Shown piece by piece: positions 23,749-46,472 of a stretch of 64,000 nucleotides of DNA (within the stretch, counting starts at the first letter, position 1; each line of letters opens with the position of its first letter). The stretch is from Chlamydiales bacterium (GTDB taxonomy: Bacteria > Chlamydiota > Chlamydiia > Chlamydiales > JAAKFR01): assembly GCA_022601535.1 (NCBI GenBank), contig JAJACK010000001.1:724893-788892 (forward strand), in the 5' to 3' direction. Both the position numbers and the translations under genes were made by a program. The notes below the pieces were generated by a model. The model was not told the origin of the DNA, ran no database searches, and saw nothing but the letters and a program-made list of their open reading frames with translations.

Positions 23749-23889
23749 ATGAAAATAATAGTGTATTTAGTGTTGGCATGTGCATGCATAGGGGCATCGG
23801 GTTGTAAAGCAAAAGCGGTGACACCAGCAAGAATAATTCAAGAGTCTAATCCACAAGCTGCTGGTTACGACAATTCAGATAAATCTTAG
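23749..23889 (+). CDS. 46-aa putative secreted/lipoprotein (copy 1), not in ORF track
   Basis: AGGAGG at 23736-23741, then ATG. Protein is MKIIVYLVLACACIGASGCKAKAVTPARIIQESNPQAAGYDNSDKS. Has a signal-like N-terminus with Cys after ASG (weak lipobox). A paralog lies 267 nt downstream. Confidence 0.5.
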   Translation: MKIIVYLVLACACIGASGCKAKAVTPARIIQESNPQAAGYDNSDKS

Positions 23890-24015: not shown

Positions 24016-24156
24016 ATGAAAGTCGTTGTATATTTAATTTTAGGGTTTGCATGTATAGGTGCATGGGGTTGTAAAGCAAAAGCAGAGAAGAAGAAGCCGA
24101 CCGAGCCATACCCAGACCAAGGGATATTAATAGAGAGCTATGGCTATGACGATTAG
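24016..24156 (+). CDS. 46-aa putative secreted/lipoprotein (copy 2), not in ORF track
   Basis: Protein is MKVVVYLILGFACIGAWGCKAKAEKKKPTEPYPDQGILIESYGYDD. Same length and a near-identical first 23 aa as copy 1. GAGGGG lies upstream. Confidence 0.5.
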   Translation: MKVVVYLILGFACIGAWGCKAKAEKKKPTEPYPDQGILIESYGYDD

Positions 24157-24191: not shown

Positions 24192-24821
24192 TTATTTAAT
24201 TTTTTCTAGTTGAATTGACGAGACTTTTCGACGGTGGTTCCAGTAGATACCACCGTAGTCGTAGTTGAGTTCTTCTCCTACTTTGATTTCTCTTGTCGCC
24301 CGAAAGATGATATGAAAAAGGCCATCGTGGTAGACCGAGAGCGATTCGAGGTTGGGAGTGTCAGCATGGTTGACAAAACGGAGGAGGTTTCCCTCTGCTT
24401 GACTGTCGATTGCAAAGGCCTTCAGAGCAATCCATTCGCGAGGATACATAAAACAATAATCATTGATATTGCGAAAAACAAGGTTGCGGCGGCGGACAAT
24501 TCCCCCATATTCCCCAATAAATTCCCATTTTTTGATCGGTTGATTGGTAAAAAGACCATAACCAATGTCAGGATGGATCCATTTGACCGTTACATCAGGG
24601 ATATAACCTGCATCAAGTGCTTTGCCATGTAAAGTTCCAAGCCAAATAGTGAGTTTATCGATATAGCCCCGTTTGTAAGCCCATTGGCATTTATTCCGGA
24701 GCCATTGCTCTATTTTATAGTTATCACATTGAAGTTTTGGTAGATAACGAAATTGAAAAACTTCTTCAAGTCGTTTTACATCATATTTGCGGAGTTTATG
24801 GCCGTGGTCAACTTTAAAAAT
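24192..24821 (-). CDS. SET-domain protein-lysine methyltransferase (NUE/cpnSET-like); start codon non-canonical or gene disrupted
   Basis: C-terminal NHADTPN and ELNYDYG SET motifs lie in the 85-aa track ORF. The same frame stays open upstream to a TGA at 24825-24827 and encodes GYGLFTNQPIKKWEFIGEYGGIV, the N-terminal half of the SET fold. There is no ATG/GTG/TTG upstream of 24449. ATT at 24819-24821 has GGAG 9 nt upstream. Confidence 0.7.
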   Translation of the reverse strand: MFKVDHGHKLRKYDVKRLEEVFQFRYLPKLQCDNYKIEQWLRNKCQWAYKRGYIDKLTIWLGTLHGKALDAGYIPDVTVKWIHPDIGYGLFTNQPIKKWEFIGEYGGIVRRRNLVFRNINDYCFMYPREWIALKAFAIDSQAEGNLLRFVNHADTPNLESLSVYHDGLFHIIFRATREIKVGEELNYDYGGIYWNHRRKVSSIQLEKIK

Positions 24822-25578
24822 GGATCACTTCTCCAATTTGATCTTGTGGGGCAATAGAAATTGGCACGGCTCCATTGATTCTCTCTTTGACAGATGTAAG
24901 AGCGCGGTCGGGATTGTTGCACTCTTCAGAGAGGTGCGCAAGATGGATATGACGAAGACCGTCATGTAGTACATCAGCAACAAGATCAGCACACATCTCA
25001 TTGGAAAGATGGCCACTTCGGCCAAGAACTCGTTGTTTATAAGTCATTGGGCGGCTACAAGCGTGTACCATTGCCGGCTCATGGTTTGCTTCAACATAGA
25101 GATAGTCACACTCTTTTAGGTGAGAACGAACAAGAGTTGTGGGAAAGCCAAGATCTGTGCAAATTCCGAGTTTTAGATTGTCGAATTTAAGGGTAAAGGC
25201 GACAGGATCAGCAGTATCATGTTGAATGCTAAAAGGGTGAATTTCAATATCTTGAAAGTTGAAGGTTTCACCTGTCTGAAAGATTGTGAATTGAGGACAT
25301 TGGCCGAGTGTGGAGTAAATCCCCTTTGCTGTTTCCATATTGGCAAGGACAGGAATGCCTCGTTTGAGCGCTAGAACTTTCAATCCTTGGATATGGTCTG
25401 AGTGGTCGTGGGAGATGAGAATGGCGTCGATTTCTTCTATTTTGACACCAATTTGAGCCAGTTTCTTTTCCGTTGCCCGTCCACTTAGGCCAGCATCGAT
25501 CAAGATTTTTGTCTTTTCTGTTCCTAAGAAAATGGAATTCCCTTTTGAGCCAGAAGCGAGAGGACAAAACCCAATCAT
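24814..25578 (-). CDS. MBL-fold metallo-hydrolase (YycJ-like)
   Basis: SGSKGNSIFLG...ISHDHSDHIQG (HxHxDH). 254 aa. Lies between ftsK and SET, as for C. trachomatis CT738 (from memory). Confidence 0.88.
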   Translation of the reverse strand: MIGFCPLASGSKGNSIFLGTEKTKILIDAGLSGRATEKKLAQIGVKIEEIDAILISHDHSDHIQGLKVLALKRGIPVLANMETAKGIYSTLGQCPQFTIFQTGETFNFQDIEIHPFSIQHDTADPVAFTLKFDNLKLGICTDLGFPTTLVRSHLKECDYLYVEANHEPAMVHACSRPMTYKQRVLGRSGHLSNEMCADLVADVLHDGLRHIHLAHLSEECNNPDRALTSVKERINGAVPISIAPQDQIGEVIHF

Positions 25579-27794
25579 GTGTTATCGGGGTAGTAGATTT
25601 TACGAGGTTTAGCTCCCTCTGAAGGGCCAATAACACCTCTATCTTCGAGTTGATCCATCAAGCCTGCAGCGCGCGCATATCCCACCTTCAATTTTCTTTG
25701 GATAAACGTTGTCGATGCCGTTCCTGTTTCAAGGACTAAGTTTTTGGCATCATCATAGAGAGCATCACGAGGAGAGCTATCGTCGAGGTCAGAATCGAGG
25801 GGATCGCGGTAAGTGTCGAAGTTGGGGATCAGGTAGTTTGTTGGAGCTTGTGAGCAGATGTAGTGGATCGTCTTGTTGATATCATCATCACGAATGAAGG
25901 CGCCTTGTGCGCGGAGAAGAGAGCTTGTTCCAGGTGGCATAAAGAGGAGATCTCCATTTCCGAGGAGTGATTCAGCACCATTTTCATCGATAATAATCTG
26001 GCTATTGACCCGGCTCGAGACTTTAAAAGCGATACGCGTTGGAAAATTAGCCTTAATAAGACCTGTAATCACTTCGCGAGAGGGGCGCTGAGTAGCTAGG
26101 ATCAGGTGAATTCCAACGGCTCTAGCCATCTGTGCAATCCGTGCAATTGGAGTTTCAATATCACTTGAAGAGATCATCATCAAATCGGCAAGTTCATCGA
26201 TAATCACGACGATAAAGGGCATTTTTTTGGGAATCTCTATATCGAGAGAAGTTTCGAGCTCTTCATTGATTTTGCGTGTATTAAAGCTGTGAATATTGCG
26301 GATTCCAAGCTGCCGAAACATTTCATACCGGCGATCCATCTCTTTGGTCAGCCAGTTGAGGGCAGCGACAGCACCTGCAGGTTCTGTAATCACAGGAGCT
26401 AACATGTGAGGAAGGTGTGTATAAGCAGTCAGCTCCACTTTTTTAGGATCGATCATCACAAGCTTGATCTCATCGGGGCGGGCAGTCATCATGATCGACA
26501 TCACAATCGAATTGATGCAGACCGATTTTCCCGATCCTGTGGCCCCTGCAATAATGAGGTGGGGCATTTTGGCAAGATCAGTCACCACACTTTCCCCATT
26601 TACCATTTTACCAAGAAGGAGAGGGATATGTAATTTTCCCCGGTATTCTTCGAGTAGTTCGCGGAAGCTCACCTCTTGAGGGTAGAGGTTAGGGATCTCA
26701 ATCCCAACAGCAGCTTTACCTGGAATAGGAGCGATAATACGGATCGAACGAGCCTGGAGGTTGAGAGCAAGGTCTTTTTCAAGAGCTTTGATTTTTTGCA
26801 CTTTGACACCAAATGCAGGGTGCACCTCAAAAGAGGTGATCGTAGGGCCACAATGGATATCTCCCACTTTTGCATCGATTCCAAAACTAGAGAGAGTCTC
26901 TTCGAGCACCTCGGCCTGCCGTTTAAGGTCAGAGGTGAGTTGAGACTGGTCAACAGGAGCTATTTCAGTGAGGAGAGAAGAGGGAGGAATTTGATATCCC
27001 TCAAGGGAAGCTTTTATCGGTTGAGGAGGGGGAGGAGGAAGTTCTTTAGATTTTTTTTCTTCAAAGACGTGAACCTTTGCCCTCTTTTTCAAAGGATCTT
27101 CGCGCACAAGAGGAGGAGGCGAATGCACCTCTTCGACAGAAGCAAAAGGACGCTTATTCACCGCAACTGGAGCAAGTCTTGGACGTCGATTTTTCCACGC
27201 ATTGTACACTTTGAGAAGAAGAGGTTTTAAAGAGAGGTTGGTAAAGAGAAGAAAAGAAGTGATAAAAAGAGAGAGAAAAATGCAGAGAGATCCAACTCCA
27301 CCGAGTAGGCGTTGAAAATTGAGTGGAGTGTCACAGTATAGATGGTGGAAGGGAACACCACCTAAATAGTGGCGTAAAGTCGATGGGTCAAAAGCGTAGC
27401 GGTGTGGATAGTAGTTAGAATAGACATAGTCATCGAAAGTAGACGCAAAACCTGTATGGTGATTTGCCATCATCGAAAGAAGGATAGAGAGAGAGAAAAA
27501 GAGAAGAGAAAAAAAGAGAAGTTTTTTACGTGGATTTGGAATCGGTTTTTTAATCATTTGCCGAATCGCCCACCAGCCAATGAAAATCGGAAGTATAAGA
27601 GAAGAAAGGCCAAAGAGGTAGAGCGAAGACCAGCCGATAAGGTGACCAGCATAGCCGAGCCAGTTGTGAAGAGGGTCATCATTGACATAGGTGAGTAAAC
27701 TGACAAAAAGGATCAGTGCACAAACAAGTTGAATAAATCCTCGAAGGATCGGAGAGGGAGGCTGTTTTTTCTTTACAGTTTTCTTCTTACGCAT
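25575..27794 (-). CDS. ftsK: DNA translocase FtsK/SpoIIIE
   Basis: N-terminal TM helices, a Pro-rich linker, the Walker A motif IIAGATGSGKSV, and a C-terminal gamma winged-helix domain (TASTTFIQRKLKVGYARAAGLMDQLE). Confidence 0.95.
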   Translation of the reverse strand: MRKKKTVKKKQPPSPILRGFIQLVCALILFVSLLTYVNDDPLHNWLGYAGHLIGWSSLYLFGLSSLILPIFIGWWAIRQMIKKPIPNPRKKLLFFSLLFFSLSILLSMMANHHTGFASTFDDYVYSNYYPHRYAFDPSTLRHYLGGVPFHHLYCDTPLNFQRLLGGVGSLCIFLSLFITSFLLFTNLSLKPLLLKVYNAWKNRRPRLAPVAVNKRPFASVEEVHSPPPLVREDPLKKRAKVHVFEEKKSKELPPPPPQPIKASLEGYQIPPSSLLTEIAPVDQSQLTSDLKRQAEVLEETLSSFGIDAKVGDIHCGPTITSFEVHPAFGVKVQKIKALEKDLALNLQARSIRIIAPIPGKAAVGIEIPNLYPQEVSFRELLEEYRGKLHIPLLLGKMVNGESVVTDLAKMPHLIIAGATGSGKSVCINSIVMSIMMTARPDEIKLVMIDPKKVELTAYTHLPHMLAPVITEPAGAVAALNWLTKEMDRRYEMFRQLGIRNIHSFNTRKINEELETSLDIEIPKKMPFIVVIIDELADLMMISSSDIETPIARIAQMARAVGIHLILATQRPSREVITGLIKANFPTRIAFKVSSRVNSQIIIDENGAESLLGNGDLLFMPPGTSSLLRAQGAFIRDDDINKTIHYICSQAPTNYLIPNFDTYRDPLDSDLDDSSPRDALYDDAKNLVLETGTASTTFIQRKLKVGYARAAGLMDQLEDRGVIGPSEGAKPRKIYYPDNT

Positions 27795-27823: not shown

Positions 27824-28390
27824 TTAAAGCCAAGCATACTCGGCATTTGAGCCAAGGCCTGTAACTACAAAAAATGTGCCGTTGATATTTTTTCCAATAT
27901 AAAGGGGAGTTCCTGGCGTAAGAGTGAACTGCTTAAAGTCGATGTCCATTGTCAATGTTTGCCCATTGCTTATAAGGAGTTTGAGCGCATATTTAGGAAA
28001 TGAAACGTATTCGTTATGACTACGACCGCAGTAGCAATAGGTTGAGACATATTCAGAGTAATATCCATTTTGGTAGATATCGATAATTTCAGAAACAGTC
28101 AAAGAGTGTTCTCCATAGTCAACAATCGTTGTACGGATCATTTCATTACGTGTTAGATTTTTTACAATGAACTGATGTTTAGCAGAACAGATCTTCACAT
28201 AGATGTCGACAGATTCCCCAGGTTGCCACCTTGCGATTGTTTTCTGATCTTTTGGATGACTTTCCCATGAGCTCCCATCTTGTAGCGTCACAACAAGGCA
28301 GTCACTATAATTAGGGGAGGAGAATCCAATGATTGTTGACTCTCCGTATAGGAAGGGGGATAACGTTAAGAGGAGAAGTAAGAGTTTCAT
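27824..28390 (-). CDS. secreted hypothetical protein
   Basis: The start MKLLLLLLTLSPFLYGES (ATG at 28390) is preferred. The ORF-track extension to 28507 is a translation of the tRNA-His gene. Confidence 0.55.
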   Translation of the reverse strand: MKLLLLLLTLSPFLYGESTIIGFSSPNYSDCLVVTLQDGSSWESHPKDQKTIARWQPGESVDIYVKICSAKHQFIVKNLTRNEMIRTTIVDYGEHSLTVSEIIDIYQNGYYSEYVSTYCYCGRSHNEYVSFPKYALKLLISNGQTLTMDIDFKQFTLTPGTPLYIGKNINGTFFVVTGLGSNAEYAWL

Positions 28391-28415
28391 AAAACCCCTT
28401 GTTATAGATAAAGAG

Positions 28416-28490
28416 GGCGAATGACGGGTCTTGAACCCGCGACCTTCGGAATCACAATCCGACGCTCTAACCAACTGAGCTACATCCGCC
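28416..28490 (-). tRNA. tRNA-His (anticodon GTG)
   Basis: Cloverleaf folded by hand. G-1 pairs with C73, the tRNA-His hallmark. Acceptor stem is GCGGATG/CATTCGC. D arm is GCTC-AGTTGGTTA-GAGC. Anticodon arm is TCGGA-TTGTGAT-TCCGA. T arm is GCGGG-TTCAAGA-CCCGT. CCA is not encoded. Confidence 0.93.
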
Positions 28491-28715
28491 ATAAAATCGA
28501 GGACCATTCTCTACAATCCATGTGTTTGTCGTCAATATTAAAAAAAATAATTGCTATATAGGAAGGGGTGGTTTTGAAGTTTTTTTGGCCTAAAAGAAAA
28601 AAAGTTGAAAAAGCTGTTGTAGTTAAATCCGGGGATTGAGTATGTTGTTGGCTTCCTTCCGATTCGGGAGACCGAAAAAGAGGGAATAGCTTCACCGCTG
28701 AGTGGAGCAGATTGC

Positions 28716-30459: not shown

Positions 30460-32676
30460 ACGATAAGATCTTGATAGTTTTGTGATAGAAAATCGGCAGT
30501 CCATTTTATCTCAGGACTGCCGTGTTCAAGCTACGAACTCGTAAGAGGACGTAGTTTGAAGGTAAATATACAATTTTACTGACAATAAATGGCGCTTGAA
30601 GAAGCAATTCATTTTTGTCGTGAACTCAAAATGCCAAATTACAGCTTAAGTTGTAGTTTGTATTAATAGTCAGCTTGACAACAAATTTTTGTGGTCAAGC
30701 TACTAAGGGCTGCTGGTGGATGCCTTGGCATCAACAGGCGATGAAGGACGTGATTACCTGCGATAATCTTCGGGGAGCTGGCAAGAAGCTTTGATCCGGA
30801 GGTCTCCGAATGGGGCAACCCAGTGGGATTAATCTCTCACTATCTCATACTGAATACATAGGTATGGGAGGCGATACTCGCTGAACTGAAACATCTCAGT
30901 AAGCGAAGGAAAAGAAATCAAAGAGATTCCCTAAGTAGCGGCGAGCGAAAGGGGAATAGCCCAAACCGGAGTCTTTGACTCCGGGGTTGTAGGACCAGTC
31001 AAAGGACCAACGACCTCTAGCCGAACACTTTTGGAAAACTGGACGACACAGGGTGATAGTCCTGTAGGCGAAAGAGGAAATTGGCAAGATTGGCACCTGA
31101 GTAGGGCCGGACACGTGAAACCCGGTCTGAATCTGGGGAGACCACTCTCCAAGGCTAAATACTCGTTGATGACCGATAGTGAACCAGTACTGTGAAGGAA
31201 AGGCGAAAAGAACCCCTGTTAGGGGAGTGAAATAGAACCTGAAACCAGCAGCTTACAAACGGTCGAAGGCCTATGCCCTTTTTAAGGGAATGGCTGACGG
31301 CGTGCCTTTTGCATGATGAGCCAGGGAGTTACGTTATATGGCAAGGTTAAAGGACTCCGTTCTGAAGCCGAAGCGAAAGCGAGTCTTAATAGGGCGTCTA
31401 GTCATATGGCGTAGACACGAAACCAAGTGAGCTATCCATGACCAGGTTGAAGCAGCGGTAACACGCTGTGGAGGACCGAACCAGTATCTGTTGAAATAGA
31501 TTTGGATGAGTTGTGGATAGGGGTGAAAGGCCAATCAAACTTGGAAATATCTTGTTCTCTCCGAAATAACTTTAGGGTTAGCCTCGAAATTAAGTCTCTG
31601 GGGGTAGAGCACTGGATTCCTGAGGGGGCCTACCGGCCTACCAATGGAAACCAAACTCCGAATACCAGAGATGAGTTCGGGAGATAGACAGTGGGGGATA
31701 AGCTTCATTGTCGAGAGGGGAACAGCCCAGACCGTCGATTAAGGTCCCTAATTCTATGCTAAGTGGGTAAGGTAGTGAAGTTTCTAAGACAGTTGGAATG
31801 TTGGCTTAGAGGCAGCAATCATTTAAAGAGTGCGTAACAGCTCACCAATCGAGAGACTTTGCGCCGATAATATTCGGGACTAAAGCATAGAACCGAAATC
31901 ACGGGTGCATCGCGTAAGCGATGCGCGGTAGGAGAGCGTAGTATGCTGCACTGAAGGTGTACCGTAAGGAGCACTGGAGCGCATACTAGTGAAAATCCAT
32001 GGCATGAGTACACGATAAAGGAGGTGAAAATCCTCCTCGCCGAAAACCTAAGGTTTCCAGGGTAAAGCTCGTCTTCCCTGGGTTAGTCGGCCCCTAAGTC
32101 AAGGCGGAAACGCGTAGACGATGGGAAACAGGTTAAATATTCCTGTACCACCTAAAACTATGGTGATGGGATGACGGAGTATGTGAAGCACGCGGACGAT
32201 TGGAAGTGTCCGTAGCACAGTGAGGCCGGTTGGCAGGCAAATCCACCAACATAAAGCTAGGCTGTGATCAAAGGGAATCTTCGGAGGAACTGATGGTGTG
32301 GAGCTAGGCTTCCAGGAAATAGTCTCTAACCGTTGATGGTGACCGTACCAAAACCGACACAGGTAGGTGAGATGAATATTCTCAGGCGCGCGAGTTAACT
32401 CTCGTTAAGGAACTCGGCAAATTAACCCCGTAACTTCGGGATAAGGGGAGCCATTTGGTGTGATTGTACTTGCTACATGAGCACTAGGTGGTCGCAGAGA
32501 AATGGCCCAGGCGACTGTTTACCAAAAACACAGCACTATGCAAACCCGCGTAAGGGGAAGTATATGGTGTGACGCCTGCCCAATGCCAAAAGGTCAAAGG
32601 GAGGTGTTAGCTTTCGGGCGAAGCACTGAACTCAAGCCCTGGTGAATGGCGGCCGTAACTATAACGGTCCTAAGGT

Positions 32677-33342
<666 letters not shown>

Positions 33343-33411
33343 TCTGGGCGCTGTCTCAACGAGAGTCTCGGTGAAATTGTAGTAGCAGTGAAGATGCTGT
33401 TTACCCACAAA

Positions 33412-33443
<32 letters not shown>

Positions 33444-33730
33444 GTTTGGTATTGGCTTCTGATTTGTCATGTGTAGGATAACCGGGAGACTTTGAAACCC
33501 CTTCGTCAGGGGGGGTGGAGTTACCCTTGAAATACCGGTCTTGACAAGTTGGGAATCTAACACGACCTCCATGAATCTGGAGCGTGGACAATGCCAGATG
33601 GGCAGTTTTACTGGGGCGGTATCCTCCTAAACAGTAACGGAGGAGTCCAAAGCTTACCTCATCATGGTCGGTAATCATGAGTAGAGCGTAAAGGTATAAG
33701 GTAAGTTGACTGTGAGACCTACAAGTCGAT

Positions 33731-33765
<35 letters not shown>

Positions 33766-33787
33766 GAAAGTGGAATCGCCGTCGCTT

Positions 33788-33824
<37 letters not shown>

Positions 33825-33851
33825 GCCACCAAGAGTTCATATCGACGTGGC

Positions 33852-33892
<41 letters not shown>

Positions 33893-34384
33893 TAGAAGGT
33901 CCCAAGGGTTTGGCTGTTCGCCAATTAAAGCGGTACGCGAGCTGGGTTCAAAACGTCGTGAGACAGTTTGGTCCCTATCCTTTGTGGGCGCAGGATATTT
34001 GAGAGGAGCTGCTCCTAGTACGAGAGGACCGGAGTGGACATACCAATGGTGTTCCGGTTGTCCTGCCAAGGGCATAGCCGGGTAGCTACGTATGGAAAGG
34101 ATAAGCGTTGAAAGCATCTAAACGCCAAGCCTCCCTCAAGATCAGATATCCCTAGAGACAACATGAAGAACACGTGTTTAATAGGTTGGGTGTGTAAGCA
34201 CAGCAATGTGTTTAGCTAACCAATACTAATCTGTCCAACGGCTTGACCATTTTTATCATCACTGGTTGCCTTACAGGCAATCGAGGTGAAAAAATGTACA
34301 GAGCTGACTATTATTACGATAAGAATGAAAAGCTCTTTGAGCGTCATTTCTTGTGAGTAAGATTGATCTATCACAAAACTATTT

Positions 34385-45896: not shown

Positions 45897-46472
45897 ATGG
45901 GTCTAAAAGAAACAGTCAAAAGTATGAGAACACTACTTCACACAATTGAAGGAGATCTCGATAAAGTGGAAGCGGGAAATAAAGCGGCAGGCCAAAGAGC
46001 GCGCAAACTCACGATTCAATTTCAAAAAGTTGCAAAAGTCTTTAGAAAAGAATCTGTAAAAAGTTCTGAGATGAAGAAGATTAAAGCAACGAAGAAAAAA
46101 ACAGCAGCAAAAAGAAAGCCTGCAGCTAAGAAGAAGGTCGTTGCTAAGAAGAAAGTGGCTAAGAAGAAAGCAGTAGCAACGAAAAGAAAGGCTCCAGCTA
46201 AGCGAAAAACAGCGACAAAGAGAAAAGCTCCAGTCAAGAAGAAAGTGGCTAAGAAAAAAGCGGTAGCAACGAAAAGAAAGGCTCCAGCTAAGCGAAAAAC
46301 AGCGACAAAAAGAAAAGCTCCAGCAAAGAGAGCAGCTACAAAAAAGCGTTCAACGAAAAGAAAAACAGTGACGAAAAAAAGAGCACCTGTACGTAAAAAG
46401 ACAACAACACGTGCAAAAACTGCTCGACCTAAAAAACGAAGTGCTGCTAAAGTGCAGCGTAAGAAAAGATAA
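45897..46472 (+). CDS. hctA: chlamydial histone H1-like protein Hc1
   Basis: The N-terminal domain KETVKSMRTLLHTIEGDLDKVEAGNKAAGQRARKLTIQFQKVAKVFRKESVK aligns with C. trachomatis Hc1 (ALKDTAKKMTDLLESIQQNLLKAEKGNKAAAQRVR...KIAKVYRKESIK). Lys/Ala-rich tail. GAGGAGGAGG RBS. Confidence 0.92.
   Translation: MGLKETVKSMRTLLHTIEGDLDKVEAGNKAAGQRARKLTIQFQKVAKVFRKESVKSSEMKKIKATKKKTAAKRKPAAKKKVVAKKKVAKKKAVATKRKAPAKRKTATKRKAPVKKKVAKKKAVATKRKAPAKRKTATKRKAPAKRAATKKRSTKRKTVTKKRAPVRKKTTTRAKTARPKKRSAAKVQRKKR
46146..46325. repeat. 2 x 90-bp tandem repeat inside the hctA tail
   Basis: 46146-46235 and 46236-46325 are near-identical. Each encodes KKKVAKKKAVATKRKAPAKRKTATKRKAP[V/A]. Confidence 0.9.

Follow-up and report, generated by a model that had tools for sequence, protein, structure and literature searches.

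Among described proteins, the nearest to the one considered here is NUE, the SET-domain protein of Chlamydia trachomatis (CT737) and Chlamydia pneumoniae (Cpn0878/cpnSET). Methyltransferase activity and type III secretion are known only for the proteins of Chlamydia species, in which the type III secretion signal lies within the first 14 to 29 codons (PMC2904774). For translation initiation, AUU starts have been confirmed in Escherichia coli only for infC and pcnB, and AUU, AUA, AUC, and CUG give 1 to 2% of the AUG level (bioRxiv 10.1101/063800). Reinitiation after an open reading frame (ORF) located upstream uses formylmethionyl-tRNA (fMet-tRNA), IF2, and IF3, and a Shine-Dalgarno (SD) sequence raises its efficiency (PMC2268962). 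Here we analyze a NUE-type SET gene that lacks a usual start codon and that is probably translated from ATT. It lies in a stretch of 64,000 nucleotides from a Chlamydiales bacterium (GenBank assembly GCA_022601535.1, contig JAJACK010000001.1, positions 724,893 to 788,892 of the forward strand), referred to as the window, and all coordinates are positions in this stretch.

A SET reading frame without a canonical start codon

The minus-strand frame from 24824 to 24192 is open for 210 codons between a TGA at 24827-24825 and a TAA at 24194-24192. Its 5' end reads TGA (24827-24825) TCC ATT (24821-24819) TTT AAA GTT GAC CAC GGC CAT, and a codon count found no ATG, GTG, or TTG among the first 125 codons. 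The ORF list contains a single entry for this frame, an 85-amino-acid (aa) product from the ATG at 24449-24447. This codon specifies Met126 in the motif CFMYP, which is nearly invariant in the orthologue alignment, and gene callers have taken it as the start. By exact look-up, NCBI and ENA contain the protein in its 85-aa form, while ATT-start versions beginning with either M or I and two internal-start versions were absent from the collection. A reading of the window made from sequence alone (the sequence-only reading) had described the same situation, with only 85 aa from the Met at 24449 and a frame open for 125 further codons, none of them a start, up to the TGA; retranslation and the codon count bear it out. 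The TGA is formed by the Val codon GTG of the upstream gene and the following A, and because it is in frame, starts further 5', including the TTG at 24836-24834, are ruled out. The 85-aa annotation is most likely a truncation of a full-length SET gene, for which we propose a coding sequence running on the minus strand from ATT at 24821-24819 to TAA at 24194-24192 (24192..24821, 209 aa).

From the codon frequencies of the window, the naive probability of 125 codons with none of the three start codons among them is about 7e-4. Given the amino acid sequence and local codon usage, the probability that the same 125 codons include neither TTG nor GTG is about 0.02. Orthologues have one to eight TTG or GTG codons across the matching stretch. 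The entire 210-codon frame of the window contains one ATG and no GTG or TTG, and this scarcity may reflect chance or the avoidance of competing internal starts.

The 210-aa translation matches the Pfam SET domain (PF00856) over residues 88 to 191 with 73.6 bits (cut-off, 22.4), and solved SET domains in the PDB align to residues 84 to 205 (3e-11). Met126 thus sits in the middle of the domain. The S-adenosylmethionine (AdoMet)-binding and catalytic motifs are IGYG (residues 87 to 90), RFVNHADTPN, and EELNYDYG, all in invariant or nearly invariant alignment columns, and they correspond to the motifs by which the SET group was defined (GxG, NH(S/A)xxPN, and ELxYDY). Because the GYG of the AdoMet-binding motif (residues 88 to 90) precedes Met126, it would be missing from an 85-aa product, in agreement with the earlier claim that the fold needs the N-terminal half. 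An AlphaFold2 model built from 34 sequences had a mean predicted local distance difference test score (pLDDT) of 85.6 and a predicted template modeling score of 0.80. Residues 1 to 110 scored pLDDT 87 to 97, and the model was confident from the first residues, with strands at residues 3 to 6 and 11 to 14. Its best structural matches were the SET domains of G9a/EHMT, over 136 to 164 aligned columns.

A homology search returned 62 SET homologues of 133 to 255 aa that cover 87 to 96% of the 210 residues, and every invariant column of their alignment is kept in the window protein. Judged by its domain, motifs, and gene order, the predicted protein is an orthologue of the chlamydial NUE/CT737 effector. 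It shares with NUE the Pfam SET domain and a size class of about 200 to 220 aa, a conserved N-terminal extension upstream of the SET core, and a place in the gene string ftsK-MBL(yycJ)-SET with a start that overlaps the stop of the metallo-beta-lactamase (MBL) gene. It differs in being only 40 to 44% identical to the orthologues of Chlamydia species and in having no canonical start codon. Two proteins, P0228 (472 aa) and P0290 (482 aa), join an N-terminal FkbM-type methyltransferase (PF05050) to a SET domain of the subfamily found in the window, so that each is a protein with two methyltransferase domains.

The N-terminal half is conserved

Residues 12 to 125 of the window protein have a mean identity of 0.528 to outgroup orthologues, and the equivalent half of three sister genes with canonical starts has 0.482, 0.487, and 0.502. 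Relative to L089, a start-less lineage described below, the proportion of nonsynonymous differences (pN) was 0.188 in the N-terminal half and 0.222 in the C-terminal half, and the proportion of synonymous differences (pS) in the N-terminal half was 0.757, which is saturated. The ratio pN/pS was about 0.25 in both halves; with synonymous sites saturated (pS of 0.67 to 0.91), this ratio is usable and dN/dS is not. Purifying selection on the gene is evident from these sequence comparisons, with the N-terminal half as constrained as the C-terminal half. An untranslated stretch would not have stayed open and conserved over 123 codons across the divergence between the window and L089. Among the matches listed, searches for closer relatives peaked at 64% identity for SET and about 81% for MBL, and the species of the window itself was not among the results of the genome scan.

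Gene order and the overlap with MBL

DNA from 80 genomic loci and several metagenomic contigs was compared. In the window, ftsK (25575..27794, minus strand, from the ORF table) is the first gene of the string and overlaps by 4 nucleotides (nt) the start of a yycJ-like MBL-fold hydrolase gene (24814..25578, minus strand; 254 aa, with Pfam Lactamase_B_2 and Lactamase_B matches). In 33 related loci the gene immediately upstream of SET is MBL; in 31, including those of Chlamydia species and Clavichlamydia, MBL is in turn preceded by ftsK. This matches the correspondence with CT739-CT737 that the sequence-only reading had drawn. The MBL homologues are 254 to 275 aa long (all 120 among the matches listed).

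The 3' end of the window MBL gene reads GGA GAA GTG ATC CAT TTT TAA, and the same bases in the SET frame read TTG GAG AAG TGA TCC ATT TTT AAA. The last 8 nt of MBL therefore overlap the proposed SET start (ATTTTTAA), and the candidate ATT (24819..24821, minus strand), which is the second codon after the in-frame TGA (24825..24827), stands 5 nt ahead of the MBL stop. Counted from that stop, SET begins within -29 to +12 nt in 29 of the 33 loci that have MBL upstream. Across the phylum, MBL and SET overlap or abut in an arrangement that allows translational coupling. The junction resembles coupled overlapping gene pairs of the ATGA or TTGA type in that a stop and a start lie a few nucleotides apart on one strand in one operon, with the SD sequence embedded in the upstream coding sequence. 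It differs from them in its overlap of 8 nt (ATTTTTAA) and its noncanonical start, and coupling here is predicted from the layout.

Orthologues start near the ATT

The N termini of the 62 SET homologues align at, or within a few residues of, the S-I-F of the window translation. Orthologues are 193 to 233 aa long, and their starts lie no more than one or two codons from the ATT and not at the equivalent of 24449; the homology extends through the upstream half. The starts of the nearest relatives are a TTG one codon upstream of the ATT position (L081/L087/L091) or an ATG two codons upstream (L018/L020). With distances counted between the 5'-most bases of start and MBL stop, the TTG lies 8 nt before the stop in L081/82 (TTG AAT TTT AAG GTG GAT), L087/88, and L091/92, and the ATG lies 14 nt before it in L018 and L020, 26 nt in L007, and 29 nt in L005. 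Elsewhere the start forms an ATGA overlap (L002, L004, L008, L019, L024-26, L028, and L050, with L025, L026, and L028 from Chlamydia species), a TTGA overlap with a TTG start (L003, L014, L016, and L023), or a TAATG or TGATG junction (L011 and L022).

This family uses TTG and GTG starts unusually often, in at least 8 lineages among about 35, and in many cases as a TTGA overlap with the MBL stop (L003, L014, L016, L023, L027, L081/82, L087/88, L091/92, and L017). This hints at selection for weak, coupled SET initiation in general.

Comparison with L018 and L020 indicates how the canonical start was lost. In L018, the SET frame reads GAG ATG CCA TCC ATT TTT AGC and the MBL frame reads GAT GCC ATC CAT TTT TAG; in the window, the corresponding frames are GAG AAG TGA TCC ATT TTT AAA and GAA GTG ATC CAT TTT TAA. 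Relative to these loci, ATG has become AAG and CCA has become TGA, a pattern best described from the aligned sequences as a historical start-codon mutation. The ATG was lost through an Asp-to-Glu change in MBL, and the TGA was created by an MBL Val codon GTG followed by A. The earlier proposal of a start-codon mutation thus holds as history, and the gene has not decayed.

In L083 (860-1010), whose MBL is the closest to that of the window by identity among the matches listed (81%), the junction carries an insertion of about 19 codons that repeats the TTTTTAA motif (TCC ATT TTT AAC ... GTT TTT AAG GTT GAT). Gene calling there chose a GTG situated downstream of conserved sequence, but the likelier start is a TTG in frame 20 nt before the MBL stop.

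Complementarity to the 16S rRNA tail

The 3' end of the 16S rRNA encoded by the rRNA operon of the window is GGATCACCTCCTTTT and carries the standard anti-SD sequence. Upstream of the ATT, the minus-strand region GGAG-AA-GTGATCC (24822..24834; GGAG at 24834-24831 and GTGATCC at 24828-24822) is complementary to the 16S tail GGAUCACCUCC; in the mRNA, GGAG-AA-GUGAUCC can pair with both CUCC and GGAUCAC. The GGAG ends 9 nt before the ATT, as the sequence-only reading had noted along with the position of the ATT and the five-T run at 24816-24820, and with the extended pairing the aligned spacing is about 6 nt. This spacing puts the P site on the ATT. The SD sequence is encoded by conserved Gly-Glu-Val-Ile codons near the C terminus of MBL.

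The predicted SD duplex energy was -15.6 kcal/mol in the window, a stronger duplex than any of the 25 canonical-start loci has (-1.0 to -10.6 kcal/mol). Among the other start-less lineages, it was -18.9 kcal/mol in L089, which has a perfect GGAGGUGAU, -13.7 kcal/mol in L015 (GGGGAGG), and -7.3 kcal/mol in L094 and L095, which have an ordinary AGGAG. Duplexes tend to be stronger in ATT lineages than in canonical-start lineages (one-sided Mann-Whitney test, P = 0.007). The predicted RNA structure of the junction was no better than that of shuffled sequence (z = -0.36), which gives no sign of a hairpin that would occlude the site or of a structure that would stimulate frameshifting.

The start-less layout recurs in other lineages

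A canonical start is also missing from the conserved N-terminal region in four further lineages, L089/L090, L015, L094, and L095/96, in which the SET ORFs are intact (196 to 209 aa) with all motifs present. L089/L090, recovered from two independent sources and with an MBL 79% identical to that of the window, reads TTG GGG AGG TGA TTT ATT TTT AAA GTT GAC CAT; its SET has been called as 146 aa and 80 aa. The window and L089/L090 thus have one common layout, TGA-x-ATT-TTT-AAA-GTT-GAC. L015 reads TAG GGG AGG CTG TCT ATT ATT AAG GTT, with its first canonical start at codon 101. L094 reads TAG GAG ACC CTA TCT ATT TTT GAG and was called as 141 aa, and L095/L096, found in two runs, reads TAG GAG AAA AAA TTT ATT TTT AAT and was called as 177 aa. 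All start-less lineages have the ATT 5 nt ahead of the MBL stop, counted to its first base, and 6 to 9 nt upstream of the ATT they have a GGAG, AGGAG, or GGAGG that stems from conserved Gly-Glu/Asp codons of MBL.

Neighbor-joining trees placed the window at the base of a clade with L089 and the TTG-start relatives L081, L087, and L083, and L015 in a sister clade with L007 and L020. This placement suggests that the start-less state has arisen, or been reversed, several times. Pattern scans of metagenomes gave 0 matches with a strict pattern and 120 with a loose one, none of which encodes SET or MBL.

Probable initiation at ATT

We consider it probable that the gene is translated by SD-directed, translationally coupled initiation at the ATT at 24821-24819, giving a full-length, functional SET protein of about 209 aa. 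Of the explanations offered by the sequence-only reading, this one is best supported, by the N termini of orthologues, the SD spacing, and the four further start-less lineages, although the use of the ATT is itself something that we infer from sequence. On this reading, an ancestral start codon inside the 3' end of MBL was lost, and translation would now begin with fMet at the ATT. The 30S subunit would be placed by the GGAG, with pairing possibly extended by GTGATCC. Initiation would then probably be boosted by translational coupling, as ribosomes terminating at the MBL TAA (24816-24814) would be released 5 nt from the ATT. Low expression would be expected. Taken together, the five start-less lineages are all accounted for by initiation at ATT.

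The proposed start is like those of infC and pcnB in that an AUU follows an SD sequence, which would make it a weak, IF3-sensitive start with low expression. Unlike them, the AUU of the window lies inside an upstream gene, 5 nt before the MBL stop, and would have arisen through loss of an older ATG or TTG. It also differs in recurring across lineages, supplied by overlapping MBL His/Tyr-Phe codons, and is not known to follow any autoregulatory logic.

Several points weigh against initiation at ATT. The ATT found at the matching position in all five start-less lineages is forced by the MBL His/Tyr-Phe codons (xAT TTT), and L007, L018, and L020 likewise carry an ATT, as a codon inside the gene; being imposed by the overlapping codons, its conservation is not independent evidence of its use as a start. 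The comparison of SD energies is confounded by the relatedness of the loci and by shared coding constraint on MBL and is suggestive only, and two of the five ATT lineages carry only an ordinary AGGAG. IF3 discriminates against AUU, so output would be low. Four of the five start-less lineages have a UUU-UAA slip site as well as the ATT, and frameshifting may contribute there. With pS saturated and no relative above about 80% MBL identity among the matches listed, the start loss in the window cannot be dated. Finally, the SET product and its N terminus are predictions, and the mechanism is proposed from the arrangement of the sequence.

Alternative explanations

The five-T run (24816-24820) and the MBL TAA form a candidate +1 slip site, CAT TTT TAA (24814..24820, minus strand), which is also the point at which MBL terminates. 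A programmed or adventitious +1 frameshift here would yield a protein of about 52 kDa, the fusion MBL::SET. In this model, UUU 24819-24817 would occupy the P site and UAA the A site when tRNA-Phe re-pairs on UUU 24818-24816, and translation would continue into AAA GTT GAC, giving the predicted junction peptide ...EVIHFKVDHGH... (EVIHFKVDHGHK). Such "shifty stops" are established in E. coli, where prfB has CUU UGA. As the sequence-only reading had proposed, the step is chemically possible, since on CAT TTT TAA A the tRNA-Phe can re-pair perfectly in the +1 frame while the stop is slowly decoded, and TTT followed by a stop occurs in four of the five start-less lineages (window, L089, L094, and L095). 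However, the fifth, L015, is start-less and its MBL ends TAT TAT TAA, on which tRNA-Tyr cannot re-pair in the +1 frame. TTT plus stop is also found in L007, L018, L020, and L083 alongside canonical starts of their own and is a property of any gene that ends in TTT-stop.

The likeness to prfB consists in a slippery P-site codon followed by a stop, with the 0 frame ending where the +1 frame continues. The stimulatory SD of prfB lies about 3 nt upstream of the shift codon. In the window, the GGAG ends 11 nt from the TTT shift codon (8 nt for the equivalent SD core position), so that the spacing, as had been recognized, is not prfB-like. In all relatives, moreover, MBL and SET are two distinct proteins. 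A fusion of the two appeared neither among the 62 SET homologues (133 to 255 aa) nor among the 120 MBL homologues in the matches listed (254 to 275 aa), and the FkbM-methyltransferase::SET proteins of 472 and 482 aa were the only long ones in the best 150 of 3281 representatives. By analogy with NUE of Chlamydia species, a fusion would also bury the N-terminal type III secretion signal. We consider a frameshift of this kind unlikely as the source of SET, although low-level slippage at UUU-UAA may occur.

Just as doubtful is a recent inactivation, in which the start was lost, the ORF has not yet decayed, and the gene yields either no protein or a useless 85-aa fragment. The ancestral ATG position is now AAG followed by TGA, the public annotation is the 85-aa ORF only, and the matches listed include no relative above about 80% MBL identity from which to date the loss. 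Against this, the frame stays open over its 210 codons and retains each invariant residue. Its N-terminal half has diverged no faster than in sister lineages, with a pN/pS of about 0.25 there and in the C-terminal half. Intact start-less ORFs occur in four other lineages, two of them recovered from independent samples, and five very recent gene deaths are improbable. L089, furthermore, has the exact TGA-x-ATT layout despite saturated synonymous divergence from the window.

Initiation at the upstream in-frame TTG (24836-24834) with read-through of the TGA (24827-24825) is very improbable. The window (TTG GAG AAG TGA) and L089 (TTG GGG AGG TGA) both have this TTG, and an equivalent TTG stands in an open frame in L081 and L083. 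In the other three start-less lineages, however, there is no upstream TTG and a TAG lies at other positions, so that read-through was rejected as a general explanation. The TTG is not preceded by an SD sequence in the window, and UGA-U is not a notably leaky context.

An error in the five-T run or at the start codon, which the sequence-only reading had also raised, is the least credible explanation and was rejected: homopolymer runs are error-prone on some platforms and four T's would put the GTG at 24828-24826 in frame with SET, but independent Logan assemblies from SRR15145662, SRR15145663, and SRR15145666, located through contigs encoding the exact MBL protein, are 100% identical to the window over 3.3 to 4.4 kb including the junction, four T's would remove the MBL stop and create an MBL-SET fusion seen in no relative, and L089/L090 repeats the layout from two different sources. 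Transcriptional slippage on the T run was considered and is unlikely, as five T's are too few for it.

Other features of the window

The run SRR15145662 holds two chlamydial MBL genes (L086 and L093), that of the window and one 80% identical to it. The source sample is therefore a metagenome in which two or more related Chlamydiae are present, and a metagenome-assembled genome is the probable origin of the window.

Between the gene for a penicillin-binding protein and the SET stop lie two paralogous 46-aa ORFs (23749-23889 and 24016-24156, plus strand) with lipoprotein-like signal peptides (MKIIVYLVLACACIGASGCKAKA... and MKVVVYLILGFACIGAWGCKAKA...). Neither has a Pfam match, and L081, a syntenic relative, lacks both. 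The three short-read assemblies of the window species each break at this repeat.

The 23S rRNA gene (30693-34250, plus strand) is interrupted by a group I intron (32644-33283; Rfam RF00028, 61.7 bits) containing an ORF (32829-33254) for a 141-aa LAGLIDADG homing endonuclease (Pfam, 6.6e-26). Simkaniaceae are known for a 23S intron, which suggests this family for the window; published papers mention 23S group I introns together with Simkania.

The Hc1 gene hctA, which the sequence-only reading had placed in the window, is found at 45897-46472 (plus strand; Pfam Hc1, 7e-18). Its 191-aa product carries a long tail rich in Lys, Ala, and Arg, in which KRKAPAKRKTATKRKAP-like units recur; Hc1 of C. 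trachomatis is shorter, at about 125 aa. A 227-aa ORF (27824-28507, minus strand) without a Pfam match overlaps a tRNA gene (28416-28489, minus strand) at its 5' end, and its real start is probably an internal Met that precedes the signal-peptide-like MKLLLLLLTLSPFLYG.

Implications for chlamydial SET proteins

A conserved chlamydial effector-type enzyme, an orthologue of NUE by the evidence given above, is present in public databases only as an 85-aa fragment, and in at least three other lineages gene callers have shortened it likewise, to 80, 141, 146, or 177 aa. Surveys of chlamydial effectors could consequently score SET as truncated or degraded. What is new here is modest, namely, the fragment annotation and the recurrence of a start-less ATT layout in at least five chlamydial lineages; AUU initiation and coupling are each already known.

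A more far-reaching possibility, which we consider unlikely, is that the junction is a selected regulatory device. It would then either tie a secreted chromatin/Hc1 methyltransferase to the translational state of the cell through an IF3-sensitive AUU or provide a dual output of AUU-initiated SET and a minor MBL::SET slip fusion. If so, the AUU would be reached mainly by ribosomes terminating on MBL, and SET synthesis would be linked, for example, to the stage of the chlamydial developmental cycle. On this view, both the recurrence of the layout in at least five lineages and the many TTG starts found in others would stem from selection for initiation that is coupled and very weak.

Bacterial genes with a confirmed AUU start are very rare, and five natural lineages appear to have converged on such a start. 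This convergence would follow from the overlapping MBL codons (Gly-Glu ... His/Tyr-Phe-stop), which supply both the SD sequence and the ATT. The MBL-SET junction is thus a compact natural system in which to ask whether coupling and SD strength can offset a weak start codon, and it may show how a start drifts over time in a gene whose beginning is buried inside another.

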